Shown piece by piece: positions 12,001 to 24,000 of a stretch of DNA of 64,000 nt. The stretch is from Escherichia coli. GTDB taxonomy: Bacteria > Pseudomonadota > Gammaproteobacteria > Enterobacterales > Enterobacteriaceae. The DNA lies in the NCBI RefSeq assembly GCF_044324875.1, contig NZ_CP172185.1; one strand, written 5' to 3'. A program made the position numbers. The stretch's first letter is position 1; each line of letters starts with the position of its first letter.

Positions 12001-15000
12001 GCTGGCAGATGCGTTACCACCTGCGTATCCAGCCGCCGTTATGGCGGTGCGGGCTGCGGCAGAACTTCCGTATCTTCCAGCAGCAGGATATCCGGACGAT
12101 ATCGGCCACGTTACTGAACGAGAACGGCGTCACGGAGTGGACGCCGCTGTTTTATGAGGACCATCCGGCGCGGGAGTTCTGTGTCCAGTACGGGGAGTCG
12201 GACCTGGCGTTTCTGTCCCGGCTGTGGGCGGAGGAGGGTCTTTTCTTCTTTGAGCGGTTTGCGGCGGACAGTCCGGAGCAGAAGCTGACGCTGTGCGACG
12301 ATGTGGCGGGGCTGTCACAGGCGGGGGAGTTTCCGTTTAACCCGGACACATCGGCAGGTGCGGAGACGGAGTGTGTCAGTATGTTCCGTTATGAGGCGCA
12401 TGTCCGCCCGTCATCGGTGCAGAGCCAGGATTACACCTTTAAGGTGCCGGACTGGCCGGGGATGTATGAGCAGCAGGGTGAGAACCTGAACGGACAGCTG
12501 GAGCAGTATGAGATATTTGATTATCCGGGAAGGTACAAGGATGAACAGCACGGCAAGGATTTCACGCTGTACCAGATGGAGAGCCTGCGCAGTGATGCGG
12601 AAAAGGCCACAGGGCAGAGTAATTCGCCGAAGCTGTGGCCGGGAACGCGGTTTATGCTGACGGGGCATCCGCAGAAGATGCTGAACCGTGAATGGCAGGT
12701 GGTACAGAGCATACTGTCAGGAAACCAGCCGCAGGCGCTGCACGGCAGCCAGGGAAAGGGAACCACGCTGGGCAATCAGTTAGAGGTGATACCGGCGGAC
12801 CGGACGTGGCGTCCACGGCTGCAAAACAAACCGAAGGTGGACGGGCCACAGAGCGCCATCGTCACCGGTCCTGCGGGAGAGGAAATCTTCTGCGATGAAC
12901 ATGGACGGGTACGGGTGAAGTTCCACTGGGACCGTTATCACGGGATGACGGAGGCGAGTTCATGCTGGGTGCGGGTATCGCAGGCGTGGGCGGGGCCGGG
13001 GTTCGGTAACCTGGCGATACCACGGGTGGGTCAGGAGGTGATAGTGGACTTCCTGAACGGCGACCCGGACCAGCCGATAATCATGGGGCGGACGTACCAT
13101 GAGGACAACCGTTCGCCGGGCGACCTGCCGGGAACGAAGACGCAGATGACCATCCGGTCAAAAACCTATAAAGGAAGCGGATTTAACGAGCTGCGGTTTG
13201 AAGACGCCACCAGTAATGAGCAGGTGTATATCCATGCCCAGAAGAACATGGATACGGAGGTGCTCAACGACCGGACAACGGATGTGAAACATGACCATAC
13301 GGAAACCATCGGGAACGACCAGAAGATAACGGTGGTGAAGGGGCAGACGGTTCAGGTCGGGACCAGAAAAGAAGGGGGCCACGACCAGAGTATCACGGTG
13401 GCGAACGACCGGTGCATCACGGTACGTAATGACCAGACGCTGCAGGTGACGAATGACCGGACGGTGAGCGTGAGTAATGATGACGGCCTGTACGTCAGAA
13501 ATGACCGTAAAGTGACGGTGGAAGGGAAGCAGGAGCATAAGACGACGGGGAACCATATCAGTCTGGTGGAGGGAAAGCACAGCCTGGTGGTGAAGGGGAA
13601 CCTGGCGAGGAAGGTGAGTGGCGCGCTGGGGATAAAGGTGGACGGGGATATCGTGCTGGAGAGCAGCAGCCGGATAAGCCTGAAGGTGAGTGGCTCGTTT
13701 GTGGTCATCCATTCAGGGGGCGTGGACATCGTCGGGCCGAAAATCAATCTCAATAGCGGCGGTAGTCCGGGGACGCCGGTGCCGGCGCTGCAACCGGCGG
13801 TGCTGAAGACACTGGGGGATGAGAAGAGTGGTGATGGCAGTGATTCCGGAGAAGAAAATGAAGACTCTGGAGGGAACTGCGTGACCGGAAGTGGTGGTGA
13901 TGATCGAGGTGACGATGAGGATGAACCTGAAAAATATACTCTCCAGTTCCATTTTACAGACGATGACGGGATACCGTATTCAGAAACCCGCTACATTGCC
14001 TTCTTTGAGGATGGCACGCAGACCCGCGGAGAAACGGATGAAGAGGGGTATACAGAGCGTTTTTTTGTATCTAGCAAACATGAAATTAAAGTGAAGTTGT
14101 TATTTGCGAATGATGATTTTCTCTCAATGGAAGGACACTATGGACGATAATAATCAAACTTCTGGACAACCAAAGCCAGAGCCAGAAGAATGTGTGAAAG
14201 AGCAAAAAATAACTGATCATTTTAAAATAATGATTGATAAGGCTCGTAAGGCACAAAAGTTGGTTTTGATAAAAAGAGCAGATGATCTTTTGAGATGGGG
14301 AGCACAGGAGGAATATGATTTCAGTAAGATCTTTGGTGTTAAAGGAAATAAGGAGGTTAATATAAGAAAATATGGACATAATACAGGTAGGCGCATGAAT
14401 GCTAGATTTCTTATGATGGATGGTGTGAGAAGATTAATGATTATAGCTAATGATTTAACAATGAGCAGTTTTATAAATTATATGGATTTGCCCCTATATT
14501 TCCAGACATCTGTTATCACTTAACCCATTACAAGCCCGCTGCCGCAGATATTCCCGTGGCGAGCGATAACCCAGCGCACTATGCGGATGCCATTCGTTAT
14601 AATGCTCGAACGCCTCTGCAAGGTTCTTTGCTGCCGTTAACCCGTCTGGTTTGGGCATGATACTGATGTAGTCACGCTTTATCGTTTTCACGAAGCTCTC
14701 TGCTATTCCGTTACTCTCCGGACTCCGCACCGCCGTGTTCTTCGGTTCAAGTCCCAACATCCGGGCGAACTGGCGTGTTTCATTAGCCCGGTAGCATGAA
14801 CCATTATCGTAACCGGCTCATTTAAACCGTCTGGTCTGTTTCCTCCGGCTCTACAAAAATAATGTCCATCATTTTTAATGGACACTATCGTATGAAACAC
14901 CGGACCTGGATCACTGAAGCTTTACGTCTTCACTTTGAAGAACATTTACCCCGGGTTGTGGCCGGGCGTCGCCTGGGTGTACCAAAATCAACAGTTTGTA

Positions 15001-21000: not shown

Positions 21001-24000
21001 TCTGCTGAACAATTGCGATCTTTTCCTGTGTGGTACGCCGTCTGCGTTTCTCCGGCCCTAAGACATCAATCATCTGTTCTCCAATGACTAGTCTAAAAAC
21101 TAGTATTAAGACTATCACTTATTTAAGTGATACTGGTTGTCTGGAGATTCAGGGGGCCAGTCTATTATACAGGTTGTAATGAATTTGCAGCATTCGTCAG
21201 CCCAAGTAAGGATATGCCCTATATAATTAACATAGGAATTTGAGTATAGAGATGGCAAAAAAAATCCAGTAACGGGAAAGGATTCTCATGTTGCTACTTT
21301 ATGTCATGAAATGTCTCATATTCAGTGGTATTATGGGGATAATAAAAAAGGTGGTATGTGGTCACAGGATTATACAACTACTGATAAATATTCAACGTGC
21401 AAAGAGGATGAAGTTTCATATGACGAACATATCCGTATTGCAACTAAACTGATCTCTAAACAAAAAGATCAAATATTCGAGAATGCATATAACATAGAAA
21501 GATATTTTGAAATAAGATTAATTGAAAGTGAGATAGACTCGATTAATGATGAAATATTAAGCAATTCAGTTAAGAAAAAAATAGCGGAATTAGAAAAAGC
21601 ACTTCTCCATTAACTAATAAGTCGAGAAATATATTAATGCTGCAAGCTATAAAAAAAATCATAATAATGACAATCGTAAATATTATATTTTTCTATTCCT
21701 TTCAATCGACTGCGGATGAAATGGTTTTAATAAAAAAATACGGGTTTGGGCTTGAGAGAGATATCAAAGGAAGGCCATTAATTTATCCTATCGAAAATTA
21801 TGATGAGTGTAAGAAAAAATGCAATCATATGAATTATATAGCGGATGTCAATGCTCAATTAGCTATGAGTAAAAAAATAACAGGATTTTTGCTAACATAA
21901 CCTTTACTAACAATAGCTCTACCACGTATTTTTTTTCTAAATATTACCTACCTATGAAAGTAAAAGATGGAAAAGGAGATGAATATGATGCGATATGCAA
22001 AAAACCATTCAGAATCAACTCTGGGAATATCACGTTGGACTACTTAGGTGGTTCATGTCCTTTTGAAATTAATACGAATCCTGAACGGTGGAATACTATT
22101 AAACCAGGTCGTAGTTTTTTGTTGAGTATAACCTTAAATGATATGTATGCCTTTATACCAGGAGATAATTATTATTTTATAAAATCATCTGGCTATAAAT
22201 TTGTTAATGACAAGTGGTTTACACTCAAATCAATCAATAATATTTTTCTTTATTTTTTAAATTTAAAAATTAATTGTGCTGATGATTTTTTTGATATTAA
22301 TAATTTTACTACATGTGATAATTTGTTATTAGATGAAAAAAAACACTTTTTTATTAATCAGTTATGGGCAATTGAGGATGAAAAAAATTCTATTTACGTC
22401 ACCCCTGATGAAATTTCTATAAGTATAGACGGCGATAACTTAAAGTTGCCATATTAGGAATCTGTGAAAGAACAAGGTGCGCCGCTTTTTTGTACTAAAT
22501 AATTCGCATTTTAGTCACGGCAGAGAAGAAATCCATCTTCATATTGTTTGCGATGTCCCTGATGAACTTATTGATTTCACGTTTGAATGGAAAGGTCAGA
22601 AGAAATTATGCGTGGCAGTCTCCTTTTGGTCAATAATAGCAGAACAAAAGAAAGAGCCAGAAATGACGGTCAGATATTATATCAGTTCTGCTGATTTAAC
22701 CGCAAAAAAGTTCGCCACAGCGATACGAAATCACTGGCACGTGGAGAATAAGCTGCACTGGCGTCTGGACGTGGTAATGAACGAAGACGACTGCAAAATA
22801 AGAAGAGGAAACGCCGCAGAATTATTTTCAGGGATACGGCACATCGCTATTAATATTTTAACGAATGATAAGGTATTCAAGGCAGGGTTAAGACGCAAGA
22901 TGCGAAAAGCAGCTATGGACAGAGACTACCTCGCGTCAGTCCTTGCGGGGAGCGGGCTTTCGTAATCTTGCCCTGGCGATCGAATAGCGCAGATGACGGT
23001 GCTCTAAATTTGAATCTAATAAGCCGGTGTTATTTTTCATCCACTATTAAAATCTTGACACAACGAGGCAACAATGAAAAAAAGCAAAAAAATTAAAACA
23101 ATGAACCATCAAAATAATAGCGGGATACAAAATCAACCAGACTATCACATCGAAATAGAAAGAAAAAATATGGTAAGATTGCTTGATGAACGTATTGATA
23201 AAGTTTACGGTTCATTGCTAGGACCAATGAAAAAGAAAAATATAGATAAAATACGTCATTTTACACTTGATGTAATGGTGTTTATTCTTGACACGAACCC
23301 TCGTGTTTGTAATAAATTATCCAGGGAAATAATATCTTTAGCGCAAAATACCTTCATTGAAAAAAACGTTAATTTTTCAACTTTTAATAATGAACAGCAT
23401 AGAATAAGGGAGTATATGAATGAAGTGGTGGAATACGATGGTTTACATGGGATAACCCCGAGATATCTTTTGTTCGTGCATCTTTTGGCCTTTTTGTCAA
23501 AATGGAAACAAAAGGTGATCATGAACATACACTAAGTGACACATTTCTTCAGATTGTTGAGTGTGTTAATTTAAATATAGGACTTATTGCAAAAGATGAA
23601 CTGGTAAAAATCATCAATAAACACTTTATGTAAAAATATACTTCTGTATGAAGTTATAATAATACAGTGAAAATCATCAAATTATTAATTAATGATGCTC
23701 TTTGTTATTATTTACTTTTTACAATTGAATCAGGGGTTTTATTTTCTGTAGTAAAGTTGTATTTTTGCTAAAGGTGATAAAGTACAGGTGTTTATATTAA
23801 ATTAGAACTCCCCTTAATTATCATAAATACAAAGAGGTGAAAACATGCGGGGGTGTTTTCGTTAAATAATACCATGGTGAATTAATAACATGCTATCAGT
23901 GATATACATATTTTCTCTAACAAAGTTTTAGTAAAATTACGCGTAGTAAGAAGATTCCGCCAAAGATTCCATATAATAATATTAAGGTTGTTATGAATAA

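Follow-up and report, generated by a model that had tools for sequence, protein, structure and literature searches.

The region studied here lies in a stretch of 64,000 nucleotides (nt) of the Escherichia coli contig NZ_CP172185.1 (assembly GCF_044324875.1), hereafter called the window. In this region, a gene annotated as 'peptidase M35' is interrupted by 6682 bp of insertion sequence (IS) DNA, at positions 14483-21164. The interrupting DNA is a three-layer nest in which an IS21-family element lies inside ISCro1 (IS66 family), and ISCro1 lies inside a copy of IS2 (IS3 family), here named copy A. As an original prediction made from the sequence alone had proposed, the elements are truly nested and do not adjoin each other side by side, and all three are catalogued E. 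coli insertion sequences. The lengths of the layers and of the inner duplications close exactly: 1331 + 8 + (2699 + 5 + 2639) = 6682.

For each layer, an independent reference sequence without interruption served for comparison. Assignment to families is based on NCBIfam scores that exceed the curated cut-offs and on proteins identical to RefSeq IS proteins, and the names ISCro1 and ISSso4-like were taken from the RefSeq/PGAP names of the identical proteins, not from ISfinder type sequences. The annotation of the nest and of its target gene is provided in Table 1.

Table 1. Features of the nested insertion sequences and of the interrupted gene (IRL and IRR, left and right inverted repeats).
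Feature	Position	Strand	Basis or detail
M35 metallopeptidase gene, 5' part, codons 1-114	14140..14482	+	Collinear with E. coli 042 EC042_RS08390 'peptidase M35'
IS2 copy A, IRR end and 3' third of insD (orfB), 326 bp	14483..14808	-	Collinear with IS2 copy B 36060-36385
ISCro1, left end: IRL (GTAACCGGCTC...), tnpA codons 1-59 (ATG at 14862)	14809..15039	+	Identical to nt 1-231 of intact reference ISCro1
ISSso4-like IS21-family element, 2639 bp	15040..17678	+	istA 15272-16807, istB 16824-17579; TG...CA termini
ISCro1, right part: GTGGC 17679-17683, tnpA codons 60-225 (to 18183), tnpB 18183-18530, tnpC 18550-20121, IRR (...GAGTCGCTTAC)	17679..20151	+	Proteins, NCBIfam
IS2 copy A, IRL end, insC, A6G site, 5' two-thirds of insD	20152..21164	-	Comparison with copy B, frames, NCBIfam
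M35 gene, 3' part, including right TTATA copy (21165-21169)	21165..21613	+	Comparison with E. coli 042

The target of the outermost element is a 263-codon gene located 3' of a PAAR gene and of tssI/vgrG, between yncG and yddH; vgrG (11745-14150) lies upstream of the interrupted gene. IS2 cuts the M35 gene at codon 113/114 (gene nt 339-343), on the 5' side of its HEMSH motif, and the pentamer TTATA is found directly outside both IS2 ends (14478-14482 and 21165-21169). The sequences flanking the nest match E. coli 042 with identities of 99.4% (left, 11700-14482) and 99.8% (right, 21165-24700). There the two flanks abut and share exactly 5 bp (1656130-1656134), which constitutes the unoccupied site. 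Since the overlap consists of exactly those 5 bp, TTATA is a genuine duplication rather than a chance repeat. The empty site of E. coli 042 also confirms the limits of the outer element and the duplication initially assigned to it.

The outer element begins with TGGATTTGCCCC at 14483 and finishes with GGGGGCCAGTCTA at 21164, and its imperfect terminal repeats have arms of 33 nt that are 79% complementary. When 14483-14808 was joined to 20160-21164, a 1331-bp IS2 was obtained. It aligned without gaps, at 98.2%, to a second IS2 of the window (copy B, 36060-37390) and showed one mismatch to an IS2 copy of E. coli RM10410. In the reconstructed IS2 both orfA and orfB are open and the slippery site AAAAAAG (A6G) is located at nt 409. 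With the IS2-specific models, OrfA of copy A (insC, 20711-21073) scored 276 bits (PRK09413, cut-off 229) and OrfB of copy B 713 bits (PRK09409, cut-off 597).

As found in the window, InsD of copy A ends in WLTDNG followed by a stop, at 200 of its 301 residues. On the IS2 coding strand, the octamer duplicated at the interruption reads GAT AAT GG, the codons of InsD D198-N199-G200. From what is known of the IS3 family, we take D198 to be the second catalytic aspartate and E234, which lies 36 residues after it and, as read from the sequence, falls in the removed segment, to be the expected DDE glutamate. Because InsD stops after residue 200 and is left without the DDE-glutamate region, IS2 copy A is predicted to be unable to make an active transposase, and the earlier claim to this effect is sound. 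We infer that this copy is non-autonomous and movable only with transposase provided in trans.

Together with its insert, ISCro1 extends from 14809 to 20151 (5343 bp) and is flanked by the octamer CCATTATC at 14801-14808 and 20152-20159. This octamer occurs a single time in IS2 copy B, which thus represents the uninterrupted state and bears out the proposal of a 5343-bp IS66-family unit inserted in insD with an 8-bp duplication. The ends of ISCro1 (GTAACCGGCTC and GTAAGCGACTC) are of the GTAA type and match at 18 of 30 positions. After removal of 15040-17683, a 2699-bp ISCro1 is recovered, with only one mismatch to an intact copy (2698/2699), the transposase of which RefSeq assigns to the ISCro1 family, and with an open tnpA of 225 codons. 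Intact ISCro1 copies from three unrelated genomes are likewise all 2699 bp in length, each with its own 8-bp duplication. TnpB (115 aa) is identical to WP_000624622.1 and TnpC (523 aa) to WP_000381395.1, named 'IS66-like element ISCro1 family transposase'. The reconstructed TnpA scored 295.8 bits on NF038385 (cut-off 150), and the other IS66-family models gave 128.9 bits (NF033819, cut-off 50) and 477.9 bits (NF033517, cut-off 180).

Both tnpB and tnpC are intact, and tnpA is split after codon 59, inside L-S-W|P-L-P; the original prediction had left to be checked whether the IS21-family insertion disrupts the first IS66 reading frame, and it does. The left tnpA fragment reaches a stop after five extra codons, and 2.6 kb now lie between the beginning of tnpA, with the DNA upstream of it, and the remainder of tnpA together with tnpB and tnpC. 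The remaining part of tnpA retains the NF047595 domain (residues 102-219), which is common to all IS66 TnpA proteins, and has the same orientation as istAB. A terminator scan of the nest revealed no terminator-like site on the plus strand downstream of istB. Judging from these frames, ISCro1 is probably defective or reliant on TnpA in trans, the sequence being compatible with a dead element as well as with a merely impaired one.

The ends of the innermost element are TGCAAAATGG and GGAATACGCA (TGCAAAA...ACGCA), and it is bordered by a 5-bp duplication, GTGGC, at 15035-15039 and 17679-17683. These boundaries were set by base-by-base comparison with intact ISCro1, the left flank ending in ...CGTGGC (15039) and the right one resuming with GTGGCC... 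(17679). The element is identical at 2638 of 2639 positions to an independent copy in NZ_OY754421.1, and seven independent copies found in other E. coli genomes all share the length of 2639 bp, with duplications of 5 bp (three copies) or 6 bp (four copies). Target duplications in the IS21 family are short, of 4-8 bp, and the 5 bp of GTGGC fit this range. IstA (511 aa) is identical to WP_045147483.1, whose RefSeq name is only 'IS21 family transposase', and IstB (251 aa) to WP_001282653.1, 'IS21-like element ISSso4 family helper ATPase IstB'; the corresponding IS21-family models scored 284.7 bits (NF033546, cut-off 160) and 257.8 bits (NF038214, cut-off 200), respectively. In addition, the 17-nt motif CGATCAnnGnTTGGCAT is present in five direct copies at 15059-15167 and in two inverted copies between approximately 17620 and 17660. 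Multiple terminal repeats are a known layout of the IS21 family, in which such motifs are IstA-binding sites. The innermost element has kept both ends as well as intact istA and istB genes, and is therefore presumed to be active still. A preference of this element for GTG at its target, suggested by the right flanks of the best matches, was also considered and rejected as a ranking artefact, the matches having been sorted by BLAST extension into the flank; the three GTG flanks among the seven copies came from matches picked off that ranked list, and no target consensus was drawn.

The position of this layer in the left arm of the IS66-family element is as originally proposed, but its limits are not. 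The element had been described as 2646 bp long (15034-17679) with an 8-bp duplication, TGGCCTTT, and this octamer is indeed present on both sides, at 15026-15033 and 17680-17687. However, the intact ISCro1 copies of the three genomes natively carry TGGCCTTTCGTGGCCTTT, that is, GAGAGC-TGGCCTTT-CG-TGGCCTTT-GCCCGC, and the octamer thus appears twice because the target itself contains it in tandem, and not through duplication on insertion. An element of 2646 bp would also leave ISCro1 at 2689 instead of 2699 bp (10 bp short) with a frameshifted tnpA, and would have the ends CG.../...AG rather than TG...CA, with a terminal matching of 16/60 vs. 24/60; moreover, its length is not that of the independent copies. 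The comparison with the intact ISCro1 copies thus led us to reject these limits, which can virtually be discarded. Regarding the length arithmetic, the total of 6682 bp holds, with the inner figure corrected from 2646 to 2639 bp. It must be stressed that a native short tandem repeat in a target can mimic a target-site duplication, and that an uninterrupted copy is needed to place the ends of an insertion sequence.

The tnpA of ISCro1 (14862-15039 plus 17684-18183) was also compared with istA (15272-15480). Residues 21-75 of TnpA are homologous to the N-terminal helix-turn-helix of the IS21-family IstA (36% identity over 55 aa, E=4e-9, BLASTP), and residues 6-70 of IstA match the IS66 TnpA model NF038385 (E=9e-15). 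This N-terminal homology gives the ISCro1-type TnpA the look of a fusion protein, with an IstA-like domain joined to one of IS3/IS66 type. The IS21-family element sits exactly within the IstA-like segment of tnpA, at the LSWPLP motif common to both proteins. Two readings were considered jointly, namely that insertion in IstA-like LSW|PLP DNA reflects target choice and not chance, and that the 5.3-kb ISCro1::IS21 unit stays mobile as a larger compound element. The latter could be so because the NF047595 domain is still encoded downstream of Met65, on a plus strand where no terminator-like site was found after istB. These readings are nevertheless regarded as quite improbable.

As to the origin of the nest, the most likely and simplest history consists of three successive in-place insertions, the outer one first. 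IS2 would have entered the M35 gene of the yncG-yddH island, after PAAR-vgrG, duplicating TTATA and splitting the gene at codon 113/114. The 2699-bp ISCro1 would then have inserted into the insD of IS2, with duplication of CCATTATC, the complement of GAT-AAT-GG. Finally, the 2639-bp ISSso4-like element would have inserted 231 bp into ISCro1, between tnpA codons 59 and 60, duplicating GTGGC. We assign to this explanation a probability of roughly 0.85, which covers both the nest of known elements and its stepwise construction. Neither the whole nest nor any of its three junctions gave a contiguous match in 5,426 complete E. coli genomes or in the 72,556 plasmids of PLSDB, and the inner junction and the left end of the IS21-family element gave zero matches in exact-match scans of the GTDB representative genomes, which thus provided no further copies. 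Matches of high coverage did not prove to be nests: in one example ISCro1 and the IS21-family element adjoin without being nested, and in another match IS2 adjoins ISCro1. Stepwise in-place insertion is the simplest history because no junction was found elsewhere and there is no sign of a composite spreading as a unit.

Several points weigh against this history. Target duplications cannot order events, and a composite that was already nested when mobilised in trans would have the same appearance. No intermediate turned up in the databases, neither the M35 gene with IS2 lacking ISCro1 nor this IS2::ISCro1 junction lacking the IS21-family element. Furthermore, the names of the elements come from RefSeq/PGAP proteins rather than from ISfinder references, and the activity states proposed above are those that the reading frames suggest. 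With duplications uninformative on order and no intermediate found, the order of the events would follow from parsimony. What was observed directly is where each element begins and ends, which bases are duplicated, how each target reads in an unoccupied reference, and which frames are intact or broken. For this reason, the three sequential transpositions of the original prediction stand as the most economical history, but not as one proven by the duplications, given that a composite moved in trans leaves the same marks.

The latter possibility, in which either the 5343-bp ISCro1::IS21 unit or the whole 6682-bp nest was moved as one piece by a transposase acting in trans, deserves consideration because the duplications fit it equally well. 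Under this alternative, one of the inner insertions would be older than the outer one at this locus. Both ends of ISCro1 and of IS2 are intact, as are tnpB and tnpC, and the intact IS2 located 15 kb away could supply OrfAB. Against this alternative, no second occurrence of either inner junction was seen in the E. coli genomes, plasmids and GTDB representatives mentioned above. In addition, transposases of the IS3 family prefer to act in cis, and a requirement for tnpA, here split, has been reported for transposition in the IS66 family. We consider this alternative unlikely. An assembly artefact, in which the assembler mis-threaded copies of multicopy elements, could be suspected given that the exact nest was found nowhere else and that all three elements are multicopy in E. 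coli (5,136 of the 5,426 genomes have matches, at a median of 6 places each). Nevertheless, a chimeric join would neither yield a perfect target duplication at each of the three layers nor restore full-length references base for base (1331 bp, 2699 bp with one mismatch and 2639 bp with one mismatch). In view of the three perfect duplications and of halves that rebuild full-length references, misassembly is very improbable, and stepwise insertion of known elements remains the preferred explanation.

IS2 copy B is uninterrupted, has the same orientation as copy A and is flanked by its own 5-bp duplication, GTATG. The 24 differences between both copies are all located in canonical nt 777-1305, nt 1-776 being identical, which gives a mosaic pattern. 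Recombination between the two copies was considered and rejected, as each of them has its own matching duplication (TTATA in copy A and GTATG in copy B). The two direct copies bracket approximately 14.9 kb of chromosome (21165-36059), and their arrangement indicates that they could mediate deletion or duplication of this segment, which the lengths of its ORFs suggest to be the narU-narZYWV region.

The M35 gene carries a second lesion with respect to E. coli 042, a 5-bp deletion after 21236 (21236/21237; ATAGGCGCAAAATTTGAG in 042 and ATAGGAATTTGAG in the window), which puts its 3' part out of frame; the remainder of the gene is identical to that of 042. Downstream of it, at approximately 22477-22965, there is a remnant of an ISAs1-family transposase, annotated as incomplete at the same place in 042 and therefore an older, shared feature of the VgrG island. 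A promoter scan of the nest returned one promoter-like site, fewer than in shuffled sequences (mean 5.1) and without functional evidence. This hybrid sigma-70-like match (14477-14504, minus strand), the sole one in the scanned region, combines a -35 TGGAAA in the IRR end of IS2 with a -10 TATAAT contributed by the flanking target DNA, including TTATA. It points outward, antisense to the M35 gene and vgrG, and is a consensus match only. The M35 metallopeptidase, a candidate type VI secretion effector linked to VgrG, is represented in the source strain by a pseudogene. The unique junctions of the nest could serve as a lineage marker for that strain. Beyond annotation the nest matters little, and its value is that of a base-exact example of stacked IS insertions.

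Compared with known systems, copy A shares with IS2 (IS3 family) its 1331 bp, the imperfect terminal repeats, the 5-bp duplication and the orfA/orfB arrangement with an A6G site for -1 frameshifting, and it differs in being interrupted in insD and, at 24 positions, from copy B. The middle layer has the tnpA-tnpB-tnpC layout, the GTAA-type ends and the 8-bp duplication of ISCro1, as well as its 2699 bp after in-silico excision, whereas the IS21-family element breaks up its tnpA after codon 59. ISCro1 was named from Citrobacter rodentium, in which it is the most expanded insertion sequence with 24 copies (PMC3072379), and both ISCro1 and ISSso4 have been reported on the E. coli plasmid pCT (PMC6361801). 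With ISSso4-like elements, the innermost layer shares istA and istB, the TG...CA termini, the repeated 17-nt motifs at both ends, the 5-bp duplication and the length of 2639 bp. No structural difference from them was seen here, and the likeness is based on the RefSeq family name of the identical IstB.

The closest arrangement was that of E. coli RM10410 (NZ_CP042350.1, 6001-10039), in which ISCro1 (6382-9080, with its own 8-bp duplication GTTCCACC) lies in insD of the same IS2 variant (one mismatch), in the same relative orientation, and this IS2 has its own 5-bp duplication, AGCAG. In contrast to the nest described here, the ISCro1 site of RM10410 is 55 bp away within IS2, the chromosomal locus is another one and ISCro1 has no IS21-family element inside. 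The RM10410 nest is an independent event, and nested insertion sequences are commonplace. The present case belongs to routine IS biology.

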